IMG/VR virus record: IMGVR_UViG_3300031787_000074
Length of the DNA stretch: 64,000 nucleotides
Strand: one strand, 5' to 3'
DNA from: an uncultured virus (IMG/VR IMGVR_UViG_3300031787_000074)
Lineage: Duplodnaviria; Heunggongvirae; Uroviricota; Caudoviricetes
Shown here: positions 16,056 to 63,994 of the stretch, piece by piece
How the letters are laid out: every line of letters begins with the position of its first letter
Numbering within the stretch: the first letter of the stretch is position 1
Notes under the pieces: generated by a model
Databases searched by the model: none
The model's input: the letters and a program-made list of their open reading frames with translations, nothing else
What the model was told of the DNA's origin: nothing
Translations under genes and position numbers: made by a program

Positions 16056-16889
16056 TCACATGAGTCTTATGTCTGATTGCTTGTCTAGTTCAGCTTGAAT
16101 CTTTTTCTTTCTAATGCTTACAGCTGCTGGCGTCACTCTAAGTTTTTTAGCTATAGCTTCATTAGACAACACAGGACTTCCGAACATTCCAAAAGCGCCT
16201 TCCATAATTATTTTATCAGTATCAGATGCTCCATAATAAACTAACTGCCTCCACCCATCCGCGCTGCTGGTATCCTTCATTAGCCTTACGCCTGGATCGT
16301 TGAAGTCTTCGCTTTCTGATCCGGCCATAGGCTTCAAAACTGTTCCTTCGCTAGAAGGCATCCTTAACTTTCTTACGTACTCAATTCTTTTTGGAGAAAG
16401 CCCTGTCTTGTCAGCCAGCTCACTTAAAGACGGGTGTCTTCCCAATTCTTCTTTTAATTCATCCTCTGCTTTGAAAAGACCTACGTAGTCTAACTGCACT
16501 TGTTCAGGAATACTTATTATCTGATTGCTTTGCAGAGTAAATCTTTTCAATCCTTGCAGCTGATTAAACACAAATGTTTTTAACTTAGTCTTTGACGGGT
16601 CGTACCTGTGAAGAGAGTCTATGACTATTTGTTTAGCCTTGCTCCCAACCATAGGGTTTGACGAGCTTCCAGCGTAAGTTTTAACGGCTGTATCTATTAC
16701 GGGTTTCAAAGCCTTTAAAACTCTGTCGTTGTTAGCTATGTCAGGATTTCTTTTCCAATCTTCATATATTTTATTATATTCAGGCTCAAGGCTTATAGTC
16801 GGCTGAGCGGGCGCAGTTCCAGGAGGCCTAGGTCCGCCTGTTGGCTGACTAGGGTTACCTACTCCAGGTATGTTGTACATCCCAGGCAT
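16056..16889 (-). CDS. RNA polymerase sigma-70 family factor (regions 2, 3, 4; SigB/F/FliA-like size)
   Basis: RYDPSKTKLKTFV (region 2), IISIP, ELGRHPSLSELADKTGLS (region 3), SNEAIAKKLRVTPAAVSIRKKK (region 4 HTH). Start moved to ATG 16889 (AGGA upstream). Confidence 0.85.
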   Translation of the reverse strand: MPGMYNIPGVGNPSQPTGGPRPPGTAPAQPTISLEPEYNKIYEDWKRNPDIANNDRVLKALKPVIDTAVKTYAGSSSNPMVGSKAKQIVIDSLHRYDPSKTKLKTFVFNQLQGLKRFTLQSNQIISIPEQVQLDYVGLFKAEDELKEELGRHPSLSELADKTGLSPKRIEYVRKLRMPSSEGTVLKPMAGSESEDFNDPGVRLMKDTSSADGWRQLVYYGASDTDKIIMEGAFGMFGSPVLSNEAIAKKLRVTPAAVSIRKKKIQAELDKQSDIRLM

Positions 16890-16900
16890 AGGTCCATCCT

Positions 16901-20085: not shown

Positions 20086-20095
20086 GGCTTTATCC

Positions 20096-48490: not shown

Positions 48491-48498
48491 GTCTCACC

Positions 48499-49989
48499 TT
48501 AAGAATGATGGCTTCCAACTTGTTTTAGGATTTCTCTGAACTTGTTGTTCAGGTCTTCCTTTTCTCTAGCTATTCCTTCTATTATCTCATCGCCAGTTCT
48601 ATATTTTTTAGCTCCAAGCATTTTAGAGAAGAAGCTGGGCTCTTCAGCCTGACTTATATACTTTTGTATAATAACGTCTTTCAGCTCTTCAGGTAAACCT
48701 ACGTGAGAATCGAACCTTAGGCCTCTTCCTTTAGCCTGTTGAGTTCTCGACTCATGGAAGTGAGGGTCAAGTATTTGTATAAGACTGGTGCCCTTGGTGC
48801 TTAAACCTTCTGCTCCAGCGGGACCAATCAATAAAGCTCTTAATTTACCAGCGTTGTAAGCATCTACGGCTTTCTTACGCTCTCTTTCCTTTACTCCTCC
48901 ATGGAAAAACCCGTAAGGAATTTTCTCTTTGGCTAGAGCCGCAGCGTATGGGTCTAATCCTGCGCCTATATAGTTAGAGTATATCAAAGCTTTTTTACGC
49001 TTATCTTCTTGTAGAACTTGTTTTAAGTTTTTTAAAGCTTCAGTCAACTTACCTGACTGCTGGAAAGACTTTATAAGATTCTTGTCTGCTCTAAACGGCG
49101 AAGTAGACAGACCTACTTGTCTAAGACCTGTCATGAAGCTGTTCAGCCTCTTTGACTCTTCTGCAGATAGGGGAAACTCTCTGTCTAGTTTCCATAAAAA
49201 CTTAAGAGGAATCTTTTCCCTGATAGCGCTTTGAATTCTTTGCTGTTCTTGAGTTAGAGGAACTTTTATTAGCTGCTCGTTTATGCTGACGCCTTCTGGA
49301 AGCTTTCCTGGCTGGTAATCAACTTTATTTTCAAGAAGCTTACGAAGTATGTGTTCGTTTCTTATTGTTTCTCTTTCGCCTGGCATGATGCCTCTAAGTT
49401 TGGCGAAGAAACCTGGGTCTACTCTTTTCTTTCGTATAAAAGCTTTGTTGAAATCTTCAGGATCTATCTTGAAACCGGTAAGCATTGATAGCGGAGTAGC
49501 CAAATCAGATGGTTCGTTGACTATTGGAGACCCAGACAAGAGCATCAGCTGATTGGCTCTATTAGCGGCTCTGGCTATAGCCTCAGTTGCGGCTGAAGTT
49601 GGGCTTCTGAGCCTATGCGCTTCATCTACGATTATTGTTTTAGGAGGCTGTTTGAACTTTTTGCCTAAAGCCGCGCCTGTGTAAGAGAGTATTTCAGGCT
49701 CGCTACCGGTGGTGAATCTGTCTACTTCTTTCTGGAAGTTTTCTCTTAGGCTTGCTGGGGCTATTACGCCGTAATCGTCACCGAATTTCTTTTTGGCGGC
49801 TTCGGCTGCAAGTATTGAAGCTAAAGTTTTGCCGGTTCCTAAGCCGTGGTAGACCAACATCTTAGGACTTTTTGTAACTAATTTCTTAGCGACTCTAAGC
49901 TGATGAGCCTGAGGAATTACCTCAGGCTTCATCTCCGCGCTCTTCCCAATCTCTGAGAAGAGCGCTATTAGCTTGGAGTATTGATTCAT
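48499..49989 (-). CDS. SF2 (SNF2-related) helicase/ATPase resembling NCLDV NPH-I/VETF (D11/D6-like)
   Basis: MLVYHGLGTGKT, IIVDEAH, LLSGSPIVN, GAEGLSTKG and ILDPHFHESRTQQAKGRGLRFDSH..LP motifs. Confidence 0.85.
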   Translation of the reverse strand: MNQYSKLIALFSEIGKSAEMKPEVIPQAHQLRVAKKLVTKSPKMLVYHGLGTGKTLASILAAEAAKKKFGDDYGVIAPASLRENFQKEVDRFTTGSEPEILSYTGAALGKKFKQPPKTIIVDEAHRLRSPTSAATEAIARAANRANQLMLLSGSPIVNEPSDLATPLSMLTGFKIDPEDFNKAFIRKKRVDPGFFAKLRGIMPGERETIRNEHILRKLLENKVDYQPGKLPEGVSINEQLIKVPLTQEQQRIQSAIREKIPLKFLWKLDREFPLSAEESKRLNSFMTGLRQVGLSTSPFRADKNLIKSFQQSGKLTEALKNLKQVLQEDKRKKALIYSNYIGAGLDPYAAALAKEKIPYGFFHGGVKERERKKAVDAYNAGKLRALLIGPAGAEGLSTKGTSLIQILDPHFHESRTQQAKGRGLRFDSHVGLPEELKDVIIQKYISQAEEPSFFSKMLGAKKYRTGDEIIEGIAREKEDLNNKFREILKQVGSHHS

Positions 49990-49995
49990 CTGTGA

Positions 49996-50928: not shown

Positions 50929-50978
50929 GATACACCTCGGTGTGGGTCTTGAAATAAATACTATCGTAACTGTTACCT

Positions 50979-53489
50979 TTATGCTAGCTCTTCGTCAGCA
51001 TCTTCCTTTTTCTTACGCCTATCTTCTTTTAACTTAGTTAAATAGTCATATAGCTTATATATACCGTAAGCACCGCCGCCAAGAGCGGCTGTTGCGCCCA
51101 AGCCTTGAACCCATGGAGCAACCTTGTGAGAAGTGGCAGTAATATTGCCAGGCTGCTCAAGAGCCTTGACTATACCCATGTACAAAGGCCCGATTGTCGC
51201 AGGGTTAACCCCCTGGTGAGGCTGAGCAGCTGACATGGCGTGAGCAGCGGCAGCCGTTGTCGGATCTTTTGTCAGAGCTTCGTAAATAAGCTTGGATTGT
51301 TCCCTGTCTGGAGTTGGATGGGCTTTCTGTACATCCTGCACTATCTGATGCATCCTGCTCATGGTGTCCACGACGCCCTGACGCCCAGATCCGTATCCTA
51401 GAAGCCTTTGCATAGCTGCGTTTTGCTTTGAGGCGGCTTCTGGAGTAGCGGCTGACTGCGCAAAAGCCGATTCTATGTCTTGTCTTTCTGCATCCGAAAG
51501 ACTGGCTTTGCGCTTGCTGATCAAATCAAACAGTTTTTCAGCTGTGGCTTTGCTCTGAAGCCTGTTGTACTTGGTATCTTTTGAGAAGAATCGCATGGGG
51601 TTGGCGTGAGCCAAGTATCCGCCGAGTGTAGCTTCTTCTTCTGGCTTGTCTGTGCTCTTTAGCTCTGCCTGCGGAGCTATGATGCCGGTAAGTTCTTCAA
51701 TCCAGTCTTTCTTGTACTTATCCTCAGGCGAAATATTCTTATCAAAGTCAGGCTGGGGATAAGTAGGCTTTCTATTCATGCCAGCTCGAGATTTAATCTC
51801 TACTGTGGCTATTCTTTTGATCAAGTCTTCAAGAGGGTTAACTCCTTCTACAGTTTGCTGCATAAAAGCTGAAGACGGGTCTTTAGCGTAATAGTTGTAG
51901 TGAGAATAATGCCCGCCTTCTGGCTGAGGAACTCCTTCTCTTGTCTCTAGCTTGGGCTGTCCGTGAGTTTGAACTCCCTGAGCGCGTAGAGCTTCAAGAA
52001 TATTCTTTCTCTGAGTGTTCAGCTCTGCGCTGCCTGGCTTGTTTACATCTTTGAACAAAGGTTCAAGAAAAGCGGAGGCAGCTTCTGGAGTTATGCCCCT
52101 AGCCTTAGCTAGTTCTTGTACAGCAAAGTCTTTCTTTGTTTCTATATCCCGGAATCTTTCGTCAAAATCTCTTCTACCTAGATAGTTGGTGCCAGGAATT
52201 CTCTCCCATTCACCTTTTGAGTTCTTTCTGTACTCTGATCCCTCTGTTCCTGGCCTTGGAGGAGGTCCTCCAACATTCATAAGCGGCCCAACCCAGTTTT
52301 CATTACGCGGGCTACGCATCCAGTTCATTATGTCTAAGGCTTTTGTGTTGCCATAAGCTATTGTCGGCAATAGGTTATTGGCTTCTCTGATATATGCAAG
52401 CTGGGCTGTAAGCTTGTCTGGTGCGCTGAACAAATCTTTTACAGCTTCTGATCCGGCTCCAAACCCTTTTGTTCTACCTGGGTTTAAATCCCTAAGTTTG
52501 AAATTAGGCATTACCTGTATGGCGTCTTGCTTAGCATCATGCTCTCTTTTCATTCTCTCTATGACAGCTTTCTCTTCTGGCGTAGCTCCGCCTCTTAGAG
52601 AGCTTGAAAGAATGCCAAACCATCCTGGTCTTTCATCTTTTGGTAGGTTTCCGCGCAACTCGGCTCTAGCAGAAGCCAAGTCTATCTGATTCTGAACGTC
52701 CTCAAGGGTCAGATTCCCTAGTTGCCTGAGTTTCGTACCGCCGTATATTCCAGCGGCACCAGCACCACCTAGCAGGGCAGATCCCAGCAAACCGGCAGTC
52801 GGAAATGAGGCTGTCGAGGGTCTTTTCTTTTTTTTAGCGGTCCTGCTGGGTGATTGCCCAATGTCGAGGTACTCTTTACCTTCTGCATCTTCAAATTGAA
52901 GATTTTCTAGCTCTTCACGATTTGCCTGATTAGCCAACAAATCATTTGCTTCTGCATTAAGTTGCCAGTTTTCAAGCTCATTAAGTCTATTTTTATTTAA
53001 ATCAGGCAGCTCCGCCTTTTTCTCTGACTCTCTAGTTACTTTCTTCCAGTTCTTTGCTGTTGGGTATCCTTTCTCTCCAGGCTTTGCTGGAGCTTCTCCA
53101 CGCTCTTTCTTGGCGTGAATGTTTGCCCAGAGGCCTGGTTTTCCGCCTGCTTCTTTCTGATTTTCTGTCTCAGCTCGCTTACTAAGAGACTGTAGTATCT
53201 CGGCTAGTTTTTCATGAGCGCTGCCACACTTCCATTTACGAAGAGACTTGTTTATTCGGCTATCTGGGTCGTTTGCCGTAGCTTTTGAAGTTAGCTTGGA
53301 CTTCATGCCTTTCATTCTGGCGCAGAAGCTATCTTTTCTTGGACCTCCTTCTGGCTGAGGCCTTTTTATGTCATGGCCTTGGGCTTTTAGGCTCTTACGG
53401 CCTTTCTCGTTCAGACCGCCTTCTGGGTTCTTGCCTTCAGAACGCTGCCAAGCTGGTGATGCGGACTTTTCTGTATCTTCAAGGCTCAT
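50979..53489 (-). CDS. Modular putative head-internal protein (small basic phage modules plus Gly-rich TM segments)
   Basis: 836 aa. AWQRSEGKNPEGGLN...SFCARM...RKWKC module (DUF6321-like, from recall), GLWANIHAKK module, two Gly-rich hydrophobic stretches. Confidence 0.6.
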   Translation of the reverse strand: MSLEDTEKSASPAWQRSEGKNPEGGLNEKGRKSLKAQGHDIKRPQPEGGPRKDSFCARMKGMKSKLTSKATANDPDSRINKSLRKWKCGSAHEKLAEILQSLSKRAETENQKEAGGKPGLWANIHAKKERGEAPAKPGEKGYPTAKNWKKVTRESEKKAELPDLNKNRLNELENWQLNAEANDLLANQANREELENLQFEDAEGKEYLDIGQSPSRTAKKKKRPSTASFPTAGLLGSALLGGAGAAGIYGGTKLRQLGNLTLEDVQNQIDLASARAELRGNLPKDERPGWFGILSSSLRGGATPEEKAVIERMKREHDAKQDAIQVMPNFKLRDLNPGRTKGFGAGSEAVKDLFSAPDKLTAQLAYIREANNLLPTIAYGNTKALDIMNWMRSPRNENWVGPLMNVGGPPPRPGTEGSEYRKNSKGEWERIPGTNYLGRRDFDERFRDIETKKDFAVQELAKARGITPEAASAFLEPLFKDVNKPGSAELNTQRKNILEALRAQGVQTHGQPKLETREGVPQPEGGHYSHYNYYAKDPSSAFMQQTVEGVNPLEDLIKRIATVEIKSRAGMNRKPTYPQPDFDKNISPEDKYKKDWIEELTGIIAPQAELKSTDKPEEEATLGGYLAHANPMRFFSKDTKYNRLQSKATAEKLFDLISKRKASLSDAERQDIESAFAQSAATPEAASKQNAAMQRLLGYGSGRQGVVDTMSRMHQIVQDVQKAHPTPDREQSKLIYEALTKDPTTAAAAHAMSAAQPHQGVNPATIGPLYMGIVKALEQPGNITATSHKVAPWVQGLGATAALGGGAYGIYKLYDYLTKLKEDRRKKKEDADEELA

Positions 53490-55390
53490 AGTACACCACC
53501 GTTATCAGTTGGCTTTATCACACCTTTTGGGTCGTATCCTTTTATCTTGCCTGTACTGCCAAAACCGACAGACTTAGCCAAAGAAGGCACGAACGAAGTA
53601 CCAGTCTCGTCAGAGATAGCTCCACTCCACGTGCCCTTCAATAAACCCTTTTGAAGATTTGACCCAAGCATTCTTGTCATCCAGTCTGGATCATACTGCA
53701 GGTTATCCAAACCTCGCAAGAAGTGAGGCTCTATTGGAGGAGGCTCATGGTGAGCTATCACTTCATTAATTCCGAAATCAGATAGTGTGTTTATAACTTT
53801 AGGAGTTACCCTGGTTCCTATCGTGTAGTGAAGGACAGGCCTTTCCAGGTACTTACCTTTTGCCGATTTTGTTGAAAGTTTCTGGTGTCCTGGCCTTGGC
53901 TGAAAAGTTTTCTCAAATAGATCGTAAGGAATAATGTCGTCAGGCATGAACTCTTCCAACTCGTCATTTAGCCTGACGTGGTTGATAAGCCCTCTAGATA
54001 GCATTTCAATATTTCTTCTATGCGCGCCCAGCCCAGCTTCTTTCATTGCGTCTCTAAAACTTAGAACAAACTGCCTTCTTCCTTCGCCTATTCCCTTGAA
54101 CTTTACAAATTCAGCAGGGTTTGGAAGGCCGTCACTAAGCACATCTCCAGCTTCTACCTCATCTCCTATTTTGAACTTCATCCCGGCTTCTGGATTTATG
54201 TAGTGAGGAACTTGTTTGATAAATATGAACTGCCCGCCGCTAGGAGCTTCGCGAACAGATTCTATTTTTCCATCTACTTGAGCATGAGTTGCCCAGTAAG
54301 GAGACTGCTTGGGACTTTGAATCAACTGATTTAGCTGCTTGAAGCCTGATATGGACTTACCGCCAGCAACTCCGCCGCTGTGTTTTGAGCTCAGGGTTCC
54401 TTGTGAGATTGGTTCGCTGAGTGCTTGCACCGCTGCAATGCCCACAAAGTCCCCAACAGCAGGTAAACCGCCACGCTCACGAACTCCAACATCTCTTGCA
54501 TACAAGCCTCCGTCAGGAGCTCCTGTGGCTACAGGACTTCTGACTACCATCTTGGTTATTCCACGGCTGAGAAGGTCTTTCATGACCTTTGGAGTTATCA
54601 GCGTGTTTTTCTTATAGCCGCCTACTGGAACAGACAGAAGTGATCCTTCGTTGTCAGAATCGTCAACATCAACAGGCATTCCTCTGCTGTCCGTATGCCC
54701 AGGATCTTCAGCGTCTCTGGCTGTGACTATGAGCCTGTGCCCTAACTGGTTTAGCTGTTTGGAAAAGAACCCAGAGTGTTGAACAGAGAACTTGGTATCA
54801 ACAACTCCCTTTCTGGCTCCGAAGCTTCCAGCAAAATACTCTGCTGGAGTTAGGCCTTTGGAGAAAGAGTTCAAAACTGGAATAGGAATAGGCCTGTCTC
54901 TGTGGTCTGTGTACAGTAAGTCTCCGCCTCTCAAAGACTTAAGGTTTGAAGGCTTGCCTCTTGAACCAGACAAAACCTGCAGAGCCAAAGGGCTGTGCTC
55001 AGCTTTGGACTCGTTAAGAATGGCGTCTTCTAGAGGCTTCTGATAACTAAGAACAGTTTTGACAATCTCGTCGTTCTTTTCTTTCTCTGGAAGGTTTCTT
55101 GCCTGTATGGCTTGTATTCTTTTCTTTATTTCTAAAGCAGCTTCCTTGCCTGATACTGACGTCCTTAGAGAATCAAGTCCGAAAGAGAATCCTCCGGTCT
55201 TGTAAGCTACATCTCTACCAACGTCAAATAACTTCTTAAGCACATCCCTGTAGCTGTCTGGATCCTTCTCAGCTATCTGCTGCATCACTTTTTGAACAGT
55301 CTTACCGTCAAGAATACGATTATAGTCTCGATAGCTCTGAGGAAGAGCTTCGTTAACTAGCAGCTGACCTACAGTAGTTCTGATAGACAT
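53486..55390 (-). CDS. rpoC: DNA-directed RNA polymerase beta' subunit, C-terminal half
   Basis: TTVGQ, SGSRG, SFSKGLTPAEYF..SFGARKGVVDT (bridge helix), GIAAVQALSEPISQGTLSSKHSGG (trigger loop), RNIEMLSR. Confidence 0.95.
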   Translation of the reverse strand: MSIRTTVGQLLVNEALPQSYRDYNRILDGKTVQKVMQQIAEKDPDSYRDVLKKLFDVGRDVAYKTGGFSFGLDSLRTSVSGKEAALEIKKRIQAIQARNLPEKEKNDEIVKTVLSYQKPLEDAILNESKAEHSPLALQVLSGSRGKPSNLKSLRGGDLLYTDHRDRPIPIPVLNSFSKGLTPAEYFAGSFGARKGVVDTKFSVQHSGFFSKQLNQLGHRLIVTARDAEDPGHTDSRGMPVDVDDSDNEGSLLSVPVGGYKKNTLITPKVMKDLLSRGITKMVVRSPVATGAPDGGLYARDVGVRERGGLPAVGDFVGIAAVQALSEPISQGTLSSKHSGGVAGGKSISGFKQLNQLIQSPKQSPYWATHAQVDGKIESVREAPSGGQFIFIKQVPHYINPEAGMKFKIGDEVEAGDVLSDGLPNPAEFVKFKGIGEGRRQFVLSFRDAMKEAGLGAHRRNIEMLSRGLINHVRLNDELEEFMPDDIIPYDLFEKTFQPRPGHQKLSTKSAKGKYLERPVLHYTIGTRVTPKVINTLSDFGINEVIAHHEPPPIEPHFLRGLDNLQYDPDWMTRMLGSNLQKGLLKGTWSGAISDETGTSFVPSLAKSVGFGSTGKIKGYDPKGVIKPTDNGGVL

Positions 55391-55614
55391 CAGATATTGA
55401 TCTCTTGGACATCGACGTCTGATTTAATGCCAAGTTTAGAGAGAATAGAATCAAACAAACCATTATCGCCTTTCTTGGCCTTGTACAAAGTGATTGTCCC
55501 AGGAGCTAGCTCAAGAACAACGATAATAGGCTGGCCAAAGCTATCGCGAATGACCAGCCTAGTAGCTTCTGCTTCTCCTGAAGATTGAAAACCGTTGTGA
55601 TATTCCAGCTTCAA
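55390..55614 (-). CDS. Small hypothetical protein coupled to the beta'(C) gene
   Basis: 74 aa; TTG start with GGGG SD; its stop overlaps the beta'(C) start (TGATG). Confidence 0.55.
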   Translation of the reverse strand: MKLEYHNGFQSSGEAEATRLVIRDSFGQPIIVVLELAPGTITLYKAKKGDNGLFDSILSKLGIKSDVDVQEINI

Positions 55615-55624
55615 AGCTTCCCCT

Positions 55625-56356
55625 TTATCGTTTGAATCCCATTGCGTTGATCAAGCAGCGAACAGCTTCGGTTTTGTCTTTCAAGCTTGCTTCCTTCTTT
55701 CCGCCGATTGGATCAATTGGCTTGATAGGAGGAATGCCGCCAACGCTGGCATCGCTTCCTTGTTCTTTTGAAGGAACAACCGGCTCTTGAGCGTCTTCGC
55801 CTTCTGGTGCGGGCTTATCGAGAATGTCGTAAGGAAGATTTAGGCCTAGGCTTTCGTACAGATTGATTAGCAACTTTTGTTGCCTTTCCATGTACTCAAG
55901 CATCTGCGCGGGATCTACCTTGCCGCCGCCTTTTGCCTTTGGCTTTGCTGCCCCGTCAGGAGAAGCTCCGCCGAGAGCTGCCTGCACGGCATCAGTAACC
56001 ATTTTCTTTATGTCATCAGGAGAAGGGGCTGGAGGAGCGCCGCCCATAGCCGCTGGATCCATAGGCGGAGCACCGCCCATCATAGCTGGGTCCATAGGAG
56101 GAGCTCCGCCGCCACCCATGGCAGCCATCATTGCTGGATCCATAGGAGGAGCACCGCCCATCATGGAAGGATCCATTGGTGGAGCGCCTGGAGGAGCAGC
56201 TCCCATCATGGCTGGGTCCATAGGAGGAGCTCCGCCGGCAGCGGCTTGGTCCATGGGAGGAGCGCCAGGAGGAGCGCCACCGCCAGGAGGAACAAAAGCG
56301 TTCTTCAGAGCCATAGCCCTTTTGACTTCTTGTAGCAAAATTGGATTGATAGGCAT
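55625..56356 (-). CDS. Pro/Gly/Met-rich repeat protein with K-x-A leader
   Basis: Start moved to ATG 56356 (GGAG). VKRAMALKNA leader, six APPMD repeats, C-terminal KKEAS. Confidence 0.65.
   Translation of the reverse strand: MPINPILLQEVKRAMALKNAFVPPGGGAPPGAPPMDQAAAGGAPPMDPAMMGAAPPGAPPMDPSMMGGAPPMDPAMMAAMGGGGAPPMDPAMMGGAPPMDPAAMGGAPPAPSPDDIKKMVTDAVQAALGGASPDGAAKPKAKGGGKVDPAQMLEYMERQQKLLINLYESLGLNLPYDILDKPAPEGEDAQEPVVPSKEQGSDASVGGIPPIKPIDPIGGKKEASLKDKTEAVRCLINAMGFKR
56030..56290 (-). repeat. Imperfect coding tandem repeat (GG)APPMDP(A/S)MM x6
   Basis: Six APPMD units in the translation; synonymous variation between units at DNA level. Confidence 0.85.
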
Positions 56357-56375
56357 TGATAGCTCCGTATTTAAA

Positions 56376-57341
56376 TTATCTAGCTCCCGCGCCGATCGGC
56401 CCAGAATGACCTTTTTCAAACTTATCAAGAAAATGACTCATAGCCCAGTTGTATTCGTCGCTAGACAAAGGCCGTCCGTACATTTGATTGAATACTTGCC
56501 GAGCTGGAGCCATAGGAACTCTGTTAGCGTAAGTCCTATTCCTTGGATCAGGAGCGCTGACGCCAGCATAGAAGTTAGGAATCATAAAATCGTTATCTTT
56601 GTCCTGAAACTTGTCAGGCATCTTAGAGTTTTTAAGCGCAGAAGATTCAAACATCTGCCTATGAGGGTGATAGCTCAAAGAAGCCCCGTAGCTGCCTTCA
56701 GGAAAGGGCTGAGGCTCAAGAGTTGTGCCTCCGGCATTGACCGTAAGCATCTGAGACAAGTTCTTATTTGAGCTAGGAGCTCTTCTGCTCTGGCTAAGCA
56801 TAGCCTTGTTGTTTGCTGAAGCCATCTCCTGAGGGCTCATGGTTGGAGGAACCATGTTTGGAACGCCTCTATTGCCTGCAGGGGCTACAGCCGAAGGAGG
56901 ACGGCTTGGAGTGGTTACAGGCCTACTGGGCGTTGGAGCAGATATAGCTCCAGGAAGACTAGCTGGACTTACAGCTGGGCTAGGCGCTGCTGGAGTCATT
57001 CCTGGAACTGTGGGAGATACTGACCCAGGAAGGGCAGATGGAGTAACTGGAGGAGTAGGAGCTGGAAGGCTGCTACTCCTCAGATGGTTTTGCAAAGAAG
57101 CCAAGGCGTCTTGGTTCATCCTGGCCATATGTGCCACTTCTGCGTCTTGCCTAGCCCTGTGCGCGGTAGCACTGGATTGGGCATTTCTAAGATGGCCAGC
57201 TATGGTGTTACCAGACACGTCGGTTAGAGGAGCCGTTGACGGAGTTGCCGGAGTGGCTGGAGTTCCTGAGTCTTGAGCCGCTTTAATCATGTGTTTGGCT
57301 AAAGCGGCCTTAACCATAATCAACTTAAATGTGTCAATCAC
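56376..57341 (-). CDS. Leader-bearing Pro/Ser/Thr-rich low-complexity protein
   Basis: 321 aa; GTG start with GGAG SD; FKLIMVKAALAKHMIKAA leader. Confidence 0.65.
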   Translation of the reverse strand: MIDTFKLIMVKAALAKHMIKAAQDSGTPATPATPSTAPLTDVSGNTIAGHLRNAQSSATAHRARQDAEVAHMARMNQDALASLQNHLRSSSLPAPTPPVTPSALPGSVSPTVPGMTPAAPSPAVSPASLPGAISAPTPSRPVTTPSRPPSAVAPAGNRGVPNMVPPTMSPQEMASANNKAMLSQSRRAPSSNKNLSQMLTVNAGGTTLEPQPFPEGSYGASLSYHPHRQMFESSALKNSKMPDKFQDKDNDFMIPNFYAGVSAPDPRNRTYANRVPMAPARQVFNQMYGRPLSSDEYNWAMSHFLDKFEKGHSGPIGAGAR

Positions 57342-57364
57342 GGCTTCTCCTTGTTCTTATAAAC

Positions 57365-58123
57365 TTATTTGTTTCTAGCTACGCCTGGCATGTCTACGTT
57401 TAGCTTCGATGGAGACGTGCTAAAAGGAGTTTGAACTGGAGGGAAGACAGAGGATGGTCTAGAGGATGCTATGTTTCTCTGCCCTTGCGCAGCCCTGCCT
57501 TGCTGATAGTTGGCGTATTCATTTGGCATTATACTTCTGCCACCTGCAGCCACGCCCACAGGATTTTGAAAAGCCTCTGGGTCAATCAAAGCTGTTCCCA
57601 TTCGGTCTAGCATGGGAGAACCGCTATTCTGCCCCAAAGAAGCTAAGTAGCCTAGAGGACTGGAGCTAGCGTGTTCCACGTGCTTCTTTATGGTCGCAGC
57701 GTTATCTATTGCTGACCTTCCAAAGTTAGCTGCGCCAGAAGCCGCGTTAGCCAGATAGCTTCCAGCATCTCTCATGCTGTTTCTTACATTCTCAGACCTA
57801 GTTAAGTCGTCTAGAGCTCTGGCCGTAGCGTAATCCGGAGCAGCCATGCTGGCTCCGGGTTTTAGACCTGTTACAAGCTGCCCTCTTCCTAGAGCCTGCT
57901 GTCTACGATTGGCTTGAATAGCCAAGTCGGCAGAAGTAGGACCAGAAGTAGGAGGCACTCTAGAAGAAGCTATAGCCTTGTCTACAGAAGTAGGAGCGGG
58001 CTTAGGCGCATTAACGCTAGCAGGGTTAGGTCCTTCTGGAGGAAAAACAGGAGGAGCGGCCTGTTTAATTAACTTAGCCGCTGCCTCTTTTACCTGCTGA
58101 ATAGCCTTGTAGTTGAAAGCCAT
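57365..58123 (-). CDS. Leader-bearing low-complexity protein (MAFNYKAI family)
   Basis: 252 aa; MAFNYKAIQQVKEAAAKLIKQAA. Confidence 0.7.
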   Translation of the reverse strand: MAFNYKAIQQVKEAAAKLIKQAAPPVFPPEGPNPASVNAPKPAPTSVDKAIASSRVPPTSGPTSADLAIQANRRQQALGRGQLVTGLKPGASMAAPDYATARALDDLTRSENVRNSMRDAGSYLANAASGAANFGRSAIDNAATIKKHVEHASSSPLGYLASLGQNSGSPMLDRMGTALIDPEAFQNPVGVAAGGRSIMPNEYANYQQGRAAQGQRNIASSRPSSVFPPVQTPFSTSPSKLNVDMPGVARNK

Positions 58124-58131
58124 CTTAGTAT
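58100..58131. repeat. 32-bp direct repeat copy 1 (gene start and leader)
   Basis: AATAGCCTTGTAGTTGAAAGCCATCTTAGTAT, identical to 58580-58611. Confidence 0.9.
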
Positions 58132-58165
58132 CCTCAGGGTTAGAGCTTTAAAAACTACTAAAAAA

Positions 58166-58603
58166 TTACTTAGATAACCTAGCTTTAGGTAATCCGTACA
58201 ACTCATCTTCTATATTTTTTGGCATGGGCAGCGCGAAATTGCTAGTTGGAACCGAATAAACTCCTCTTGGCTGGTAGTGCATGGCTCTGCGAGCCATGTC
58301 CAGGGTAGTAGGCGATGTTAGCATGTTCTCTACTTGAGCTCTATCTTTACCTATGGACACCGCGTCTTCTTTTTTCCCAGACTCCAAAGCTTTAATTTGC
58401 TTTTCTAAAAGTCTCTTAGCGAAGTCTTTTTGAATATCAATAAAGTTACTCATACCCTGGTCATTTGGATAATTTCTAGCGGCAAGACCGGCGTCTCCTG
58501 GAGCTCCTAGAGTAGATTTAAGTTTTACTGCTTCATTTTTATCTGCAGATAATTTAACTGCAGCTTTTTTAACTTGTTCAATAGCCTTGTAGTTGAAAGC
58601 CAT
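58166..58603 (-). CDS. Leader-bearing protein (MAFNYKAI family)
   Basis: 145 aa; MAFNYKAIEQVKKAAVKLSA. Confidence 0.7.
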   Translation of the reverse strand: MAFNYKAIEQVKKAAVKLSADKNEAVKLKSTLGAPGDAGLAARNYPNDQGMSNFIDIQKDFAKRLLEKQIKALESGKKEDAVSIGKDRAQVENMLTSPTTLDMARRAMHYQPRGVYSVPTSNFALPMPKNIEDELYGLPKARLSK

Positions 58604-58611
58604 CTTAGTAT
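58580..58611. repeat. 32-bp direct repeat copy 2
   Basis: Identical to 58100-58131. Confidence 0.9.
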
Positions 58612-58658
58612 TCCTAACTTTAAAACTGCGTTGGCTACGGAAGTAAAACGTATCTAGA

Positions 58659-58687
58659 AGTATAAACTGCTTTATAGCTTACAGCAA
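58659..58687 (-). promoter_or_regulatory. Candidate sigma70-type promoter
   Basis: TTGCTG-17 bp-TATACT upstream of 58603. Confidence 0.5.
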
Positions 58688-58726
58688 TCAGCCTTTTACT
58701 AACAATTTTTACCTTGGCTTTTACCA

Positions 58727-59197
58727 TTAATACCCGTAGTTAACTTTACCTGTGCCAAGACTTGGCAAACCTACGCCTTTTAGAAAAGCTTGCCTATGCA
58801 AATTGTTGAATGGAGTTTTTGACAATTCTGTCGGTAACGTTTGATAAGTAGGGTATGGAACAATTTGACGATAGTTTTCTGATCCAGGCATGGAGTATTG
58901 ATACGGGTTTACGGGTTTATTTAGCGCCTCTGTACTGGCTGCGTGTCGCGTTTCTGGAAGATTTCTAGAGCCTTCCAACATTTTTTGTTTTCTTTCTGTT
59001 TCAGAAAGCCACTTTATGCCAGGCTCAGGCGCTTTTTGATAAGTAGGAAGACCTATAGCGTCTCCTCCGTAACCTGGAGGAATAATTTGCGGTTTAGTCG
59101 CACTGCTGGCAGTAGGTTTTAAAGTAGCCGCAGATTCAGCAGCCCTTTTTGCCAGAGCTTCTTTAACCATTGAAATAGCTTTGTAATTAAAAGGCAT
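58727..59197 (-). CDS. Leader-bearing protein (MPFNYKAI family)
   Basis: 156 aa; MPFNYKAISMVKEALAKRAA. Confidence 0.7.
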   Translation of the reverse strand: MPFNYKAISMVKEALAKRAAESAATLKPTASSATKPQIIPPGYGGDAIGLPTYQKAPEPGIKWLSETERKQKMLEGSRNLPETRHAASTEALNKPVNPYQYSMPGSENYRQIVPYPTYQTLPTELSKTPFNNLHRQAFLKGVGLPSLGTGKVNYGY

Positions 59198-59200
59198 GGC

Positions 59201-59246
59201 TTCACCCTAGTTTACACCCTAGTTTTCACCCTAGTTTTCACCCTAG
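59201..59246. repeat. 12-bp tandem repeat (TTTTCACCCTAG), about 4 copies
   Basis: ttcaccctag tttacaccctag ttttcaccctag ttttcaccctag fills the space between the RNAP stop and the next start. Confidence 0.9.
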
Positions 59247-62200
59247 CTGTTTAGAATTACCACTTTCTGATCAGGCCCAATTTCTCCTGACTTATAAGCC
59301 CTGATTGCGTCGGCTTTTGTGGCAAAATACCGTTCTGGTTTATTAGACACGAAGGCCGTTGCCTGATAAAGACCGCCTTGATACTCGTTCTTTGGCAGCT
59401 GGTGAACTTTAAACGTTTTAGTTGATAGCAAATTCTTGCTAGGCAACATCTTTTCAAGAGCGTCTTTGACAGCTCCATCAGACACAGGAACGTGGTAGTT
59501 CATGGTGTCGCCATCAAAGTCGGCACCAAATCCCGTAACCACAGCTGGGCATAACTGCATTGTTTCGTTGTCTACAAGTATTGGCTTGAAGGCCATAACG
59601 CCATACCTGTGAAGAACTGGAGCTCTGTTGATAATCACAGGCCTGTCGTTCATCTCTTGCTGCATAGCTGTCAGAGCTAACTTGTCTTTGTTCTGCACAA
59701 GTTCTGCTGCCCTAATCGGAGAAACTCCTTGTCTGGCCAGTCTTCTTACAATAAATGGTTTATATATTTCCCAAGCTTTGTTGATAGGAATGCCTACTTG
59801 ATCTAAATCCAGATTGGCGTTTGGAGAGATAACGCCTCTGCCAACAACGTCTACTGTCGTGCTTAGCAACTTGCGCTGCATAACAGAGAACTTAGGATTA
59901 TCGCCAAACACGTATTTGAGAACGCCTTTGACTCCGCGCTCTTGGTTCTTGGGACTTATTGGATCACCAAGTCCCGTGACTGCTTTGAATGACCTATATA
60001 GAGCTAAGCGCTCATCTCCAACTTCGTTGGATATTCTTCTGGTTTCTTTCAAAGCCTGGTTAGCTTCAAAAGCTTCCTTATACAGGTAATTAGGATCAGC
60101 CACCAAAGGTCTGTCGCCAGATCCCATAACAGCCACAGGGCGGAATATTGGTGGAAGGACTGGAATCTTGTCCATCATCCAATCTTTTGGATGCATCTTC
60201 AGCCTTTGGGTGTGTTTCAGAATCGCCCAGCGCTTTAGAGCTGCATCTTTCGATGACTTCTTCGAGTTTCTCCATTCTGTTTCTGCTCTCTTTGTTGCCT
60301 CGTTGATGTCAATTCTTTCCAAAGACTTCTTTATAGCCTCTGGACCGGACATTTCATTGAACGTCTCTTTTCCAGAAAGTATGGCGTTGAACCTGTTTTG
60401 AGTCAGGCCGAGTATTCTGCGAATAGGCTCTTCCATGACAGGATTGGGCAAAGGCTCAGCTAACTTTATGTAGCTCCATCTATTTCCTCCATGTCCTCCT
60501 GTTGTTGATTCGTCAAACAATCCTCCCTTTATGGGCTTCAAGCCTTCCTTCCAGTCCACAGTTTCAGGAGAAGTTATTTCCCTTCCTGCAGCTAATTGGT
60601 CTATATCCTTGTTGGTCAAGGCCATGATCTGAATTCTTGGCCCAGTTCTTATTGGGTTTATGCCTGCAGACCTGAGTTGTTCAAAGAACTTATGGTATAC
60701 GAGAGGAATTCTTGGCTCAGGAGGAGTTCTACCGGACATGAATGCTGCCCAGTAGTCTTGATTTTTTTGTCCTCTAATAGCTCCGGCATCGGTAAGAACA
60801 TCCAAAGCTCCATGGGAAAGAAGGGCGTTGTTGTCAGCAAGGCTTACGCGCTTGCTTCCCATTGGACCGCCTTTAGCTGGAGATTCCTCAGAGGTGTAAG
60901 AACCCAAACCACGACCAGAGCCTTTGCTCTCAGCCATGTGGTGCAACTTCATGAAGAAGCGATTTCCTGTGAATACGTCCCTTATTTTTGTGCTGTCTAT
61001 TGGATCCAGTATGTCTTCCCTGTCAGACATGTTGTGCTTGGATAGTTCTTTTTTGGCGAACTCTATCATGTCTTCTATGTCAGAAAAGTCTTTTACGGCG
61101 TATCTCTTACCGTGCTTTTCAGCTATTTTTCCCAGAACCGCTTCTACCATCTGACCAGGATTTGTTCTGGAAATAATGCCCAAGGGGTTTACCAGAACCT
61201 CAAAAGGTCTTCCGTCGCTATCTACAGGCATGTGGTTGTCTGGAACTATCTCAGAAATTACTCCCTTGTCTCCATACCTTCCAGAAAGCTTGTCGCCAAC
61301 CTGCATTTGGGAGTAGCTCTTTACTGTTACGACTACGCCTTTCCTGGTTTTCTCTACGTCTGTAACCACTCCTTTGTCGTGATGATCCCAAGTTACAGTG
61401 CTGTCTGAAAAAGTAGGAGCCTTGCCTCTGGTTATTTGATTGTGCGCCAGCTCTTTCTGCTTAACCTGAAGAATAAGAGGAGTATCGGCATTTACTATTG
61501 AGCCCTTCTTGATTACTCCGTCCTCATCCATGTTGTCCAGGATGGCTTTGTCGTAAGTGCCTGGGAACATGGATATAAAAGTTTTCTTTCCGTATTTGGC
61601 GTTATCCTCAAACTCCACGTCGTTTTGATACATGTGTTCTGAGGAAAGACGCTTGGCAGCTGCCTCAGATATAACTATGGCGTCTTCAAAGTTCTGACCT
61701 TTATAGGGAATGTAGGCAGTACGCATGTTCAGACCCAAAGCCGTAGCGCCTTTGGCGTCTGTAAAGTTAGACCTGGCAATAAGAGTATTCTTCTTTACCA
61801 TGTCTCCAGGCATAACTACAGGCGTGTTATGAAGATAAGTCTTTCTGTTGTAAGGAAGGTTGTCATGTATTTCTTTAACATGCACCTTGCCATCAGATCC
61901 CTTTATGTGAATCTCTTCTGGAGTAACCTTAACAACTTGTCCTTCTACGTCGGAATGTACCGCGCCCATGTACTTGCCGTATCTTTCCTCATACGACTCG
62001 TCATCAGGACCTGGAACACCTGACTGAACAAACGGGGATTCGGCGTTTGCAATAGGCAAAGCCTGTGTAAGCATTCTCGCGCCCATCATCACGCGCTGGC
62101 CTTTGATGGTGGATTTGAGAGGAATCATGTTTACCAGAGGATTGAACGAGTCTTCCATGTGTGGAAGAACGTATTCAACCTGGTTCTTTGGAACATATTT

Positions 62201-63679
62201 GATTTTGCCGCTAACCAAAGCAGCCACTACGTTTGAATTCTTGTTTTCAAGCTCTTTGGGGAAAGCTATTACAGAGTCAGCAATATCCTGAGGAGTTTTC
62301 CATACAGGTTTATTTCCATTCTTTACGTCAAGAAACTTGGCATAGACCTTTCCATCCTTACCTTTCATGGAAGATTGAGCCAAACGGCTATCAACACCTA
62401 CCTTTAGAGATTCAGGAGTGAGTAGAGGATCGACATAACCAAAGTGAGAAGGCTGAACCGACCTGGCTTCGTCTGGAACAGCGTCCAGAGAAGGAATACC
62501 GCCTTCGCCAAGACGACTCATTCTGGTCAGCTGGCCAAGAATCTCAGCGTTGTTCACTTCTTCAGAAGGCTGTCCAAGTCCAGAACTTGTAATTGCAGCA
62601 TTCAAATGCTTGCCAAGGAAGTTAGTTCCCAGAGGACTGAGATTATTTTTGAATGTGGCTTTCCACAGTAAAGGCCTCATGACCTTGTAGGCTGAGCGCA
62701 TCTTCTCAGAAAACAGATCCTCAGGACCCATGATCATCTGATAGGCCATGGCATCGCGGTCGTCTGGATCTGCTTCTCTCTTGTTTATGGCCACGATCTT
62801 CTTTGTGGCATCAATAATGGCATCTACTGACAAGTTTTTATACGGTTTGCCTAGTGTTCTTGACGTTACAACACCATCTAAATGCATGTTCTCAAAGAAG
62901 TTACGAAGCTTTTGATACTTGCTTTCCTTGTCTCCTTCCTGATCAGCCTTCCTAAGAGTTCTTTGGATTAGCTTTTCCAGAACCTGCGGGTCGTTTTGCC
63001 TGGCGTTTACTTCGTACAGCTCGTTTCCCCAAGAGTCTCTAAGCTGTTTGTCTGTTGCACCCATGGCTTTGAGCAGGGGAAACAGAGGCATGGACGCTTG
63101 GCCCATGGAAACTTTGAATACGCCGCGAGCTGGATCTAGAGAATATCTGTGAGAAACACCTTTACCAGGAAGTACGTTAACGTGAGATTCTATTTCACCG
63201 TTCTGCTTTTCTCTCGTATATATCCCTGGGCGCAATCTGGCTTGGTTGGCAAGTGTGTATTCAACACCATTAAGTACGAAAGTGCCGCCATTTGTCATCT
63301 TGGGAATACGAGCCATGGTTATGGCTTTTTCATCAACGATGTTTCCCTGCGTGTCCTGAAGCTGCCATATGCCCTGAAGCCTTCTTTCAAGGCTTTCTTT
63401 TCTAAGAATGGCTTTCTTTCGTTCTTTTATGGAAGGAACTGGGCTATCTAGATAGCTAGCGCTGACTAGCTTTAGCTTATACCTATTGTTTTCAAATACA
63501 GGAATTTCTTTCGTAGCGTTTAAAACACCGTCGTATATGGAGTTACGAGTCTTATCTATGTCAGAAAAAGACCGCATCTCTTCCTGAGGTTTATTTAAAA
63601 TAGGCGCGGCCAGATTGCCAAGAACTCCTGCAGGCTTGTTTGGTCCCGCAGGAGTTCCACCGTCTAGGACAGAAGCCAT
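59243..63679 (-). CDS. rpoBC: DNA-directed RNA polymerase beta-beta'(N-terminal) fusion
   Basis: Beta motifs IPKMTNGGTFVLNG, TPESLKVG, GQNFEDAI, GDKLSGRYGDKGVIS, NPLGIISRTNPGQ, MKLHH. Then beta' motifs PVLPPIFRP, NRAPVLHR and catalytic GADFDGD (59507-59527). Confidence 0.97.
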   Translation of the reverse strand: MASVLDGGTPAGPNKPAGVLGNLAAPILNKPQEEMRSFSDIDKTRNSIYDGVLNATKEIPVFENNRYKLKLVSASYLDSPVPSIKERKKAILRKESLERRLQGIWQLQDTQGNIVDEKAITMARIPKMTNGGTFVLNGVEYTLANQARLRPGIYTREKQNGEIESHVNVLPGKGVSHRYSLDPARGVFKVSMGQASMPLFPLLKAMGATDKQLRDSWGNELYEVNARQNDPQVLEKLIQRTLRKADQEGDKESKYQKLRNFFENMHLDGVVTSRTLGKPYKNLSVDAIIDATKKIVAINKREADPDDRDAMAYQMIMGPEDLFSEKMRSAYKVMRPLLWKATFKNNLSPLGTNFLGKHLNAAITSSGLGQPSEEVNNAEILGQLTRMSRLGEGGIPSLDAVPDEARSVQPSHFGYVDPLLTPESLKVGVDSRLAQSSMKGKDGKVYAKFLDVKNGNKPVWKTPQDIADSVIAFPKELENKNSNVVAALVSGKIKYVPKNQVEYVLPHMEDSFNPLVNMIPLKSTIKGQRVMMGARMLTQALPIANAESPFVQSGVPGPDDESYEERYGKYMGAVHSDVEGQVVKVTPEEIHIKGSDGKVHVKEIHDNLPYNRKTYLHNTPVVMPGDMVKKNTLIARSNFTDAKGATALGLNMRTAYIPYKGQNFEDAIVISEAAAKRLSSEHMYQNDVEFEDNAKYGKKTFISMFPGTYDKAILDNMDEDGVIKKGSIVNADTPLILQVKQKELAHNQITRGKAPTFSDSTVTWDHHDKGVVTDVEKTRKGVVVTVKSYSQMQVGDKLSGRYGDKGVISEIVPDNHMPVDSDGRPFEVLVNPLGIISRTNPGQMVEAVLGKIAEKHGKRYAVKDFSDIEDMIEFAKKELSKHNMSDREDILDPIDSTKIRDVFTGNRFFMKLHHMAESKGSGRGLGSYTSEESPAKGGPMGSKRVSLADNNALLSHGALDVLTDAGAIRGQKNQDYWAAFMSGRTPPEPRIPLVYHKFFEQLRSAGINPIRTGPRIQIMALTNKDIDQLAAGREITSPETVDWKEGLKPIKGGLFDESTTGGHGGNRWSYIKLAEPLPNPVMEEPIRRILGLTQNRFNAILSGKETFNEMSGPEAIKKSLERIDINEATKRAETEWRNSKKSSKDAALKRWAILKHTQRLKMHPKDWMMDKIPVLPPIFRPVAVMGSGDRPLVADPNYLYKEAFEANQALKETRRISNEVGDERLALYRSFKAVTGLGDPISPKNQERGVKGVLKYVFGDNPKFSVMQRKLLSTTVDVVGRGVISPNANLDLDQVGIPINKAWEIYKPFIVRRLARQGVSPIRAAELVQNKDKLALTAMQQEMNDRPVIINRAPVLHRYGVMAFKPILVDNETMQLCPAVVTGFGADFDGDTMNYHVPVSDGAVKDALEKMLPSKNLLSTKTFKVHQLPKNEYQGGLYQATAFVSNKPERYFATKADAIRAYKSGEIGPDQKVVILNS

Positions 63680-63682
63680 GGC

Positions 63683-63994
63683 TTATTCCTCGTTATCTTC
63701 TTCCTGGTCTTCAGACTCTTCTACTTTTTTCTTCTTTTCATGAATTGGAAGAGCCATAAGCTTTGGAGGAGAAGCAGCCTGCCTTGCAGCAGCTCTTTCT
63801 CTGGCTATTTCGCCAAGGAGCTTGGAAGGATCTCTCTTGCTGAAGTATTCGTATCCAAGGGTTGTTCCAAGAACAGGCAAACCAGCCAAAGCTGTAAGCC
63901 CCAAACCTCCAATTATGTTACCGGCGGATTCTAAAGAAGCTCTTGCCGCATTAGGGTCAATGCCTGCTTGCTCATAAATAGGGTCTGTAATCAT
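63683..63994 (-). CDS. Small protein with Gly-rich hydrophobic helix (true start may lie beyond the window edge)
   Basis: 103 aa; IIGGLGLTALAGLPVLGTTLGY followed by a charged tail. Confidence 0.55.
   Translation of the reverse strand: MITDPIYEQAGIDPNAARASLESAGNIIGGLGLTALAGLPVLGTTLGYEYFSKRDPSKLLGEIARERAAARQAASPPKLMALPIHEKKKKVEESEDQEEDNEE

Follow-up and report, generated by a model that had tools for sequence, protein, structure and literature searches.

The 64,000-nucleotide stretch of DNA analyzed here (the window), from the uncultured tailed virus IMGVR_UViG_3300031787_000074, encodes an RNA polymerase of the bacterial type that consists of two chains. One chain is a fusion of the beta subunit with the N-terminal part of beta' (beta'N), and the other is the C-terminal part of beta' (beta'C). 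Together they are the sole multisubunit RNA polymerase of the phage. Neither of the two zinc sites known from bacterial beta' retains a cysteine in this enzyme, and cysteine is nearly absent from both chains. The explanation that we favor, with moderate confidence, is that the polymerase, a phage sigma factor, a helicase and the low-complexity proteins encoded nearby are carried in the capsid and ejected together with the DNA, and that selection against cysteine removed the four-cysteine staples that hold zinc. For the polymerase itself, membership in the virion and ejection are very probable. The sequences directly show the features described below, their distribution among relatives and the cysteine statistics, and publications supply the presence in Arash virions and the suppression of cysteine in ejection proteins. 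For the phage of the window, packaging and ejection, the absence of metal and the selective reason are points that we infer.

The polymerase genes

Coordinates refer to the window, and genome-wide counts refer to a 189,675-base IMG/VR-type record (G001) that is estimated to be 91% complete. The window begins at base 37517 of this record. The two are not letter-identical over the 64 kb, and a one-base shift of the open reading frames (ORFs) between the window start and the polymerase genes implies at least one small insertion or deletion. Nearly all genes of the record lie on the minus strand.

The fusion gene (59243..63679, minus strand) encodes 1478 amino acids (aa), including one cysteine. 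Its Pfam domains follow one another in a single frame, first Rpb2_3 and Rpb2_6 (8.8e-53) and then Rpb1_1 and Rpb1_2 (4.1e-25). Likewise, the PDB entries matched by this protein include beta chains (best E value 4.6e-68) and beta'/gamma chains (best E value 3e-48). The beta'C gene (53486..55390, minus strand) encodes 634 aa without cysteine, contains the Pfam domain Rpb1_5 (2.8e-18) and matches a beta' chain in the PDB at 1.5e-34. Pfam and PDB matches both place the beta and beta' domain set in canonical order, and the PDB alignments put the break in beta' close to the site at which cyanobacterial gamma and beta' are separated. The two chains share 26-30% identity with bacterial beta and beta'. 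Rpb2_6 has a single match in the whole record. No match to alpha (PF01000) or omega (PF01192) was found in this 189,675-base, ~91% complete record by searches that scored in 14 of 14 control genomes. The phage core may use the alpha and omega subunits of the host.

Is such an enzyme functional? The alignment shows that the three aspartates of DFDGD, the arginine of NRAPVLHR and the histidine of the trigger loop are kept. Because its catalytic core is intact, the two-chain polymerase should be active. The idea that the genes are pseudogenes or an inactive relic was rejected because the frames are open, are conserved over hundreds of clusters and preserve the catalytic residues. The original prediction assigned the interval 54500..60530 to the polymerase. 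This interval is not one gene, but it does span the region from the middle of beta'C to the junction in the fusion at which the zinc ribbon is missing. About 3.8 kb of it is taken up by six small ORFs that are not part of the polymerase, and its borders narrowly exclude the trigger loop and the flap tip.

Loss of the zinc sites and changes around the catalytic center

The phage chains and those of the relatives described below were aligned to Salmonella beta and beta', whose genes (rpoB and rpoC) were taken from a contig present in the phage collection and whose residue numbering is used here. Salmonella beta' carries the four cysteines of the N-terminal zinc ribbon (C70, C72, C85, and C88) within residues 64-100. 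In the phage enzyme, GHGGN stands in place of the ribbon, in the junction GGLFDESTTGGHGGNRWSYIKL (fusion residues 1052-1073; 60461..60526, minus strand). The deletion appears as a 32-column gap, both flanks of the gap are aligned, and no cysteine is present at the junction. The claim that the ribbon had been cleanly deleted was therefore correct, and the deletion amounts to 32 residues.

The second zinc site of beta' is formed by C814, C888, C895, and C898. The segment aligned to C814 is TARDAED (54704..54724, minus strand), in which the cysteine is replaced by alanine and five residues are inserted. The other three ligands fall in RSPVATGAPDGGLYARDVG (54485..54541, minus strand), where C888, C895, and C898 correspond to T, Y, and D. 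In other words, all four ligands are substituted (A, T, Y, and D), in line with the original prediction that this site is free of cysteine.

Three further changes proposed in the original prediction also held up in the alignment. The catalytic motif reads GADFDGD (fusion residues 1385-1391; 59507..59527, minus strand) where Salmonella has NADFDGD at 458-464, so that Asn458 is replaced by glycine and the full motif is absent from the window enzyme. The trigger loop reads TLSSKH (54380..54397, minus strand) in place of the Salmonella TMRTFH at 931-936; its histidine is kept and its arginine is lost, and this arginine is likewise missing in the relative L007 and in the cultured phages Arash and D69. 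The beta flap tip, QKELAHNQITRGKAPTFSDS (61400..61459, minus strand), is trimmed by eight residues, with 48 aligned residues versus 56 in Salmonella beta.

Distribution of the losses among relatives

Profile-guided scanning of viral contigs yielded 72 related loci with 28-76% identity, located on contigs of up to 193 kb. The cultured members of the family are Salmonella phage Arash and Vibrio phages D69, D148, and D181, at ~30% identity. All 70 relatives with an ORF over the junction have the ribbon-less junction in frame after beta, and the same 32-column gap marks the ribbon deletion in each of these 70 ORFs. The window also has the rest of the family layout, a separate beta'C gene that lies a few kb downstream on the same strand. 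The catalytic asparagine is present in 2 of the 56 relatives whose ORFs cover the motif; its position is occupied by alanine in 44, by glycine in nine and by serine in one. The motif reads AGDFDGD in 17 of these 56 relatives, AADYDGD in 15, AGDYDGD in 11, and GADFDGD in eight, and five versions (AADFDGD, NADFDGD, NMDFDGD, GADLDGD, and SADFDGD) were found once each. The beta-containing chains of the relatives have 0-4 cysteines, except for L030, whose 1938-aa ORF has 10.

The second zinc site is distributed differently from the ribbon. Each of the 25 relatives at ≤38% identity has all four cysteines, and 19 of them have no others; the site is lost in 7 of 7 relatives at 57-75% identity. Protein database homologues extend this pattern. 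Among the 120 best homologues of beta'C (51-100% identity), 111 have no cysteine, and four with six to eight cysteines are probably intein carriers, judging by their length and their intein Pfam labels. The C-x5-8-C-x2-C motif was found in none of the 150 best cluster representatives of beta'C at 50% identity, and 86 of 89 uninterrupted representatives have no cysteine in the beta'C part. The flap tip is short in 10 of 10 relatives at ≥55% identity and in L030, and the remaining 63 have a 53-residue flap stretch with the bacterial-looking helix motif TPEDKMLGRLHK.

Thus, the traits fall into two layers. Ribbon loss, the missing catalytic asparagine, and cysteine depletion are old traits of the whole family. 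The loss of the second site and the trimmed flap tip mark one very large derived subclade, which includes the phage of the window. The original prediction proposed conservation among homologues as a check and regarded homologues with retained cysteines as a sign of a lineage-specific quirk. Such homologues exist for the second site only, whose loss is confined to one subclade, and the ribbon loss is conserved in all 70 relatives that could be compared.

The polymerase genes of some relatives are further divided or interrupted. Many distant relatives (L032-L087; for example L077, 9995-13351 and 13348-14499) cut beta' once more. Their first gene encodes beta together with the initial ~100 residues of beta', a stretch that contains the ribbon-less junction; the second gene encodes the catalytic part (~385 aa) and is sometimes located several kb away; and the third gene encodes beta'C. 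Inteins or homing-endonuclease domains (PF14528 and PF05203) interrupt beta'C in P0015, P0016, P0067, P0113, and many of P0172-P0321. The ribonucleotide reductase of the phage also bears an intein (G001 106228-109611). In L004, a relative at 76% identity, the fusion gene occupies two overlapping frames of 487 and 987 aa (10001-14405), and beta'C is present in two pieces of 156 and 397 aa (19709-21435) that follow extra ORFs of 525 and 136 aa. These breaks may be due to a frameshift, an assembly error, or an insertion.

Cysteine content of the polymerase and its gene block

The polymerase contains one cysteine in 2112 residues (0.05%), and the enzymes of close relatives contain none. The 212 ORFs of the phage record together have 809 cysteines in 60777 residues (1.33%), a background against which the polymerase count has a binomial P of 1.5e-11. 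The Pfam-assigned enzymes of the same phage are richer still, with 207 cysteines in 10602 residues (1.95%; Fisher P = 1.8e-15 versus the polymerase). The scarcity extends beyond the two polymerase chains. Thirteen consecutive ORFs (window 47960-63994) contain five cysteines in 5248 residues, and the cysteine-poor block continues in the record to 106085, with eight cysteines in 6772 residues. Suppression of cysteine relative to the other proteins of the phage is a pattern that recurs in the phages N4 and phiKZ.

Evidence for probable packaging in the virion

Evidence for packaging comes from Arash. In purified Arash particles, 3516 spectra were assigned to Gp206, 1210 to Gp216, 1148 to Gp217, and 467 to Gp10, and Gp206 was the most detected particle protein, above the major capsid protein (PMC10585845). 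Sequence comparison identifies these four proteins as orthologues of proteins of the window phage: Gp206 corresponds to the fusion, Gp216 to beta'C, Gp10 to the sigma factor, and Gp217 to the helicase. The cysteine count in Arash covers six named proteins; the particle list is probably contaminated, and the GenBank labels of Arash differ from those in the published table. Gp206 has one cysteine, Gp216 has four, which are the zinc ligands, Gp10 and Gp217 have none, and the terminase has 13.

Further evidence comes from phages in which a virion polymerase can be compared with a second enzyme of the same phage. The phiKZ chains were located via PHROG families, since a search for Pfam RNA_pol_Rpb1_2 in phiKZ gave no match, and the assignment of each gene to the virion or the non-virion enzyme is one that we presume. 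The non-virion beta'N (47.9 kb) has eight cysteines, including a CxC...CxxC ribbon, in agreement with PMC7618050, whereas the virion beta'N (188 kb) has two cysteines in 491 residues and no ribbon. The four-cysteine cluster of the second site is retained in both phiKZ beta'C-like proteins. The non-virion enzymes of jumbo phages bear the zinc ribbon, and an SNF2 helicase accompanies the polymerase genes (PMC7824862). A similar contrast is seen in N4, in which the injected gp50 has no cysteine in 3500 residues versus four in 269 and nine in 404 for the chains of RNAP II. The lack of cysteine in N4 gp50 and in DEV gp71 has been described previously, and cysteine suppression is conserved across the ejection operon of the Schitoviridae; the suggested cause is passage through the periplasm, the site of disulfide-forming enzymes (PMC11445570).

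These findings suggest the following model. The polymerase would be packed in the capsid, ejected with the DNA, and able to start transcription without the host enzyme. The sigma factor, the SNF2 helicase, and the neighboring low-complexity proteins would be its co-cargo. If the ejection route selects against cysteine, four-cysteine zinc staples would become a liability. The N-terminal ribbon would have been deleted early in the family, and later, in the large subclade, the second zinc cluster would have been rebuilt without metal ligands and the flap-tip helix trimmed.

Several observations weigh against this model. Cysteine is scarce not only in the polymerase: the Pfam-assigned structural proteins of the phage (baseplate and fiber-like) have 21 cysteines in 5091 residues (0.41%; P = 0.008 versus the polymerase), and the bias may reflect life outside the cell instead of ejection. 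The list of Arash particle proteins has 116 entries, including ribonucleotide reductases, and its authors allow for carry-over of abundant proteins (PMC10585845). Furthermore, the virion data come from Arash, which is ~30% identical and keeps the second zinc site. The non-virion RNA polymerase of AR9 lacks the beta' zinc-binding domain (PMC7618050), and ribbon loss is therefore no marker of packaging. Nor does packaging demand a zinc-free enzyme, because the second site persists in the phiKZ virion enzyme and in 25 of 25 Arash-like relatives. A periplasm cannot be assumed for the host. Finally, the absence of zinc is deduced from sequence, and histidine, aspartate, or glutamate could in principle bind a metal.

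Could the polymerase be made after infection and never be packaged? It would then read middle or late genes, the early genes being read by the host polymerase, and its lack of cysteine and zinc would stem from a cysteine-poor ancestor, a zinc-poor or oxidizing habitat, or drift after the ribbon had lost its partners. We regard this alternative, the chief competitor of the packaging model, as unlikely. It fits the position of the polymerase genes, which share a long one-directional block with structural genes in the manner of late genes, and it draws on the ribbon-less non-virion enzyme of AR9, on the long Arash list with its evident non-structural enzymes, and on the restriction of the virion data for this family to Arash. 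However, it has to contend with the rank of Gp206 above the major capsid protein in Arash particles. A peculiar habitat alone is also insufficient, given the 1.95% cysteine in this phage's replication and nucleotide enzymes, and the contrast between virion and non-virion enzymes is repeated within phiKZ and within N4.

A second question is why an ejected enzyme would have lost its zinc. The original prediction held that metal-stapled domains were lost because the enzyme has to unfold completely to pass through the tail, and bound zinc would block unfolding or refolding. In its favor, Arash particles hold the orthologues, the ribbon is missing both in the family to which this particle-borne polymerase belongs and in the phiKZ virion enzyme, the window subclade is without any zinc site, and the published cysteine suppression of ejection proteins points the same way. 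But the ribbon deletion is an old trait of the family and did not arise as an adaptation of this phage, and the second site has retained its four cysteines in most of the family (25 of 25 distant relatives) as well as in the phiKZ virion enzyme, a state that is difficult to reconcile with obligatory full unfolding. Moreover, every other cysteine has been removed too, pointing to cysteine as such. The link between zinc loss and ejection thus stands in part, and the unfolding rationale in its original form is improbable. Cysteine avoidance as such, which is the cause invoked in the packaging model, explains the data at least as well as unfolding in the tail.

Structure models and the former second zinc site

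The structure prediction and superposition suggested along with the original prediction were carried out for beta'C. An AlphaFold model built from 61 sequences has a mean predicted local distance difference test (pLDDT) score of 85.2, with 89-96 in the former zinc region. In a Foldseek search, bacterial beta' ranked on top, and the model superposes on it with a query template-modeling (TM) score of ~0.7. A second model covers fusion residues 640-1478 and has a pLDDT of 69.8 and a predicted TM score (pTM) of 0.40; it is moderate and is used for local confidence only. In this model, the ribbon-less junction is a confident tight connection (pLDDT blocks of 83-93), and the flap tip is a coil with pLDDT below 50.

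The fold of the former second zinc region seems to be kept in the model without a conserved set of ligands. Among the 120 homologues, the C814 position is occupied by alanine in 50, aspartate in 31, histidine in 16, serine in 13, and other residues in 10. The residue at C888 is not conserved; at C895 it is tyrosine in 114 of 120, and at C898 it is aspartate in all 120. With variation at two of the four former ligand positions, there is no conserved set of substitute ligands. One could still argue that the site binds metal via other ligands such as Asp, His, or Tyr, so that the enzyme would be free of cysteine but not of metal. The conservation of the last two positions, a histidine that the window enzyme has in the five-residue insertion near the C814 position, and the high confidence with which the region is modeled, suggesting a kept fold, are the grounds for this view. 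Yet the C814 position is variable, the C888 position is unconserved, and the insertion that contains the histidine varies among close relatives, which leaves no conserved set of three or four ligands. Metal binding by such a substitute site is very improbable.

Sigma factor and the RNA exit channel

The phage encodes a divergent factor of the sigma-70 family (16056..16925, minus strand), a 289-aa ORF with one cysteine that is listed in the database in a 274-aa form. It was found by a Pfam scan of all ORFs, in which it matched Sigma70_r3 (1.9e-6) and the SigB/F/G family TIGR02980 (1.4e-6). A profile of 34 members of this sigma family matched SigA (8h3v_G) at 1.9e-13 over regions 2 to 4.2. The protein shares 32% identity with Arash Gp10 (E 2.8e-16). 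Searches of the phage record for Sigma70_r2 and for the second Arash sigma factor, gp196, gave no match. The sigma gene lies inside the baseplate module, beside a Baseplate_J gene (13483-15135), and Arash Gp10 is likewise encoded among structural genes. Fifty further homologues are present in the protein database, mostly of ~240-280 aa, several of them on contigs of 125-221 kb. The core probably works with this sigma factor of the phage's own.

In bacteria, the flap-tip helix docks region 4 of sigma. The RNA exit channel is lined by the zinc ribbon, of which termination and antitermination factors make use, and the catalytic asparagine of cellular enzymes contacts the sugar of the incoming nucleotide. 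It is plausible, as the original prediction proposed, that sigma region 4 or terminators make non-standard contacts with the enzymes of the zinc-free subclade. The sigma factor of the subclade keeps the helix-turn-helix of region 4.2, but the core lacks the ribbon and the flap helix; for this reason, promoter geometry and the response to hairpin signals likely differ from those of the Arash-type sister enzymes. A more far-reaching proposal, which we offer tentatively as a possibility, is that the capsid stores a complete cellular-type holoenzyme, composed of the two-chain core and sigma and accompanied by the SNF2 helicase, which passes through the tail and the cell envelope. In the zinc-free subclade this holoenzyme would need neither a metal staple nor cysteine, and its RNA exit channel and its docking of region 4 would have been rebuilt. 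Such a holoenzyme would have an altered promoter geometry and would ignore host factors and terminators that act at these places.

Helicase and neighboring genes

An SNF2-type helicase of 496 aa without cysteine (48499..49989, minus strand; Pfam SNF2-rel_dom and Helicase_C) is encoded near the polymerase. It is 34.5% identical to Arash Gp217 (E 6e-78). In the relative P0269, beta'C, a NUDIX domain, and the SNF2 helicase form a single protein of 1774 aa, which suggests that the helicase may act on the polymerase in a RapA-like way. In many relatives, beta'C is fused to long, cysteine-free tails that are rich in Ala, Pro, and Gly and contain small DUF modules.

The gene that follows beta'C encodes an 836-aa protein with two cysteines and an N-terminal DUF6321 module (50979..53489, minus strand; Pfam 5e-16). 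It contains two hydrophobic stretches rich in Gly and Ala and matches PHROG families of unknown function. Its start overlaps the beta'C stop by four bases, and the two genes are translationally coupled. On the other side, a conserved ORF of 74 aa (55390..55614, minus strand) has a stop that overlaps the beta'C start by one base. Homologues of this ORF are found directly upstream of beta'C in L004-L007 and L020-L022, which lack the second zinc site. No homologue of this size is present in that position in L031, which keeps the second site, and the 74-aa ORF has no Pfam or PHROG match.

The remaining space between the two polymerase genes is filled by low-complexity proteins. A protein rich in Pro, Ala, and Met with APPMDP-like repeats (55625..56428, minus strand) has no family match, and its true start is likely the internal MPINPILLQEVK. 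Counterparts of this protein are present in L004-L007, L020-L022, and L031, and its conservation extends to a relative at 40% identity. Next to it are four Ala/Pro-rich, cysteine-free ORFs of 321, 252, 145, and 156 aa (56376..59197, minus strand), also without a family match; close relatives have two to five such ORFs between the polymerase genes. Three of the four share the N-terminus M(A/P)FNYKAI..VK.A. The pattern occurs in four of the 212 ORFs, three of them between the polymerase genes, and in one of 124 ORFs of a control stretch, numbers that are too few for statistics. The shared motif is a lead toward a possible capsid-targeting or protease signal.

A protease of the subtilisin family (Peptidase_S8, 4.6e-63) with eight cysteines is encoded in the structural block (11987-13075, minus strand) and is a candidate head-maturation protease. 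Outside the window, the record encodes very long, almost cysteine-free proteins at G001 128506-132402, 141297-144713, and 145303-149337, two of which contain collagen-like repeats (1298 and 1138 aa). The same stretch encodes Laminin_G-type proteins and many glycosyltransferases and methyltransferases.

Significance

There are known precedents for multisubunit polymerases in phages, for virion polymerases, and for ejection proteins without cysteine. The present analysis adds the sorting of the traits into two layers, the coupling between loss of the second site and flap trimming, the contrasts within phiKZ and within N4, and the link to the published cysteine rule. Narrow literature searches, confined to sources outside subscription journals, found no published description of the beta-beta'N layout or of a zinc-free multisubunit polymerase.

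Both zinc sites of beta' have been treated as near-universal, and the N-terminal zinc-binding domain has been described as common to every enzyme of this kind (PMC7618050, citing Lane and Darst 2010). The family described here contains a large natural clade that has neither site and no cysteine. This clade, of at least 150 clusters at 50% identity, keeps a sigma factor and an intact catalytic center. It is a natural experiment on the need for the ribbon, the second cluster, the flap-tip helix, and the catalytic asparagine, with sister lineages such as Arash and D69, in which the second site and the flap tip are both retained, as controls. The absence of cysteine that characterizes ejected proteins of N4-like phages is extended to a multisubunit polymerase and its companions, and cysteine depletion offers a simple sequence criterion for predicting capsid cargo. 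For practical use, a compact two-chain polymerase with neither cysteine nor metal might prove robust. The family-wide replacement of the asparagine raises the question of sugar selectivity, i.e., the choice between ribonucleotides and deoxyribonucleotides as substrates.

Comparison with known systems

The bacterial core enzyme has the same domain order, both double-psi barrels, DFDGD, the bridge helix, and the trigger loop. In bacteria, beta and beta' are unfused, whereas the phage joins beta to beta'N and splits beta'. The bacterial enzyme also has the ribbon, the second zinc site, Asn458, the trigger-loop arginine, a full flap tip, and the alpha and omega subunits. The non-virion polymerase of AR9 is another phage multisubunit enzyme without the beta' zinc-binding domain (PMC7618050). 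It differs in being non-virion and highly diverged, and it uses gp226 instead of a sigma with a helix-turn-helix (PMC9209446). On the second zinc site of AR9, the main text of PMC9209446 gives no information, since neither "zinc" nor "Zn2+" appears in it.

The mReC phages (Weinheimer and Aylward 2020, PMC7481178) are uncultured tailed phages, like that of the window, and their beta and beta' are detectable with COG models. They differ in that most of the entries compared from the published contig table have a separate beta of ~1150 aa and beta' of ~1410 aa. A comparison of six IMG sample numbers from the relatives' loci with the files of that paper found one of them, on another contig. The T4-type capsid family PF07068, an mReC trait, has no match in the phage record.

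N4 gp50 resembles the window enzyme in being an injected polymerase devoid of cysteine, encoded in a gene block that suppresses cysteine as a whole. It differs in being a single-subunit, T7-like enzyme within a giant protein, the fold of which is unrelated to beta and beta'. The virion RNA polymerase of the phiKZ type is multisubunit, carried in the particle, and injected (PMC7598289). Its beta' is split near the same place as in the window enzyme, its beta'N is ribbon-less and cysteine-poor, and its polymerase genes are associated with an SNF2 helicase (PMC7824862). In contrast to the window enzyme, its chains are too diverged for Pfam RNA_pol_Rpb1_2, its beta is split and not fused to beta', a second, non-virion set is present, and the virion beta'C-like protein keeps the four-cysteine site. 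No sigma factor was found in phages of this type (PMC7824862).

The closest known systems are the polymerases of the cultured relatives. The Arash paper labels the two proteins as beta and beta' subunits, and the passages on them mention neither a fusion nor zinc sites (PMC10585845). Arash (Gp206 and Gp216), D69, D148, and D181 have the same arrangement of a beta-beta'N fusion and a beta'C, with the same 32-residue ribbon deletion. They also lack the catalytic asparagine, are nearly free of cysteine, and have orthologous sigma factors and helicases. They differ from the window enzyme in sequence, at ~30% identity. In both Arash and D69, the second site still has its four cysteines, the flap tip is near-bacterial (TETDMVLGRLHK), and the catalytic motif reads AADYDGD.

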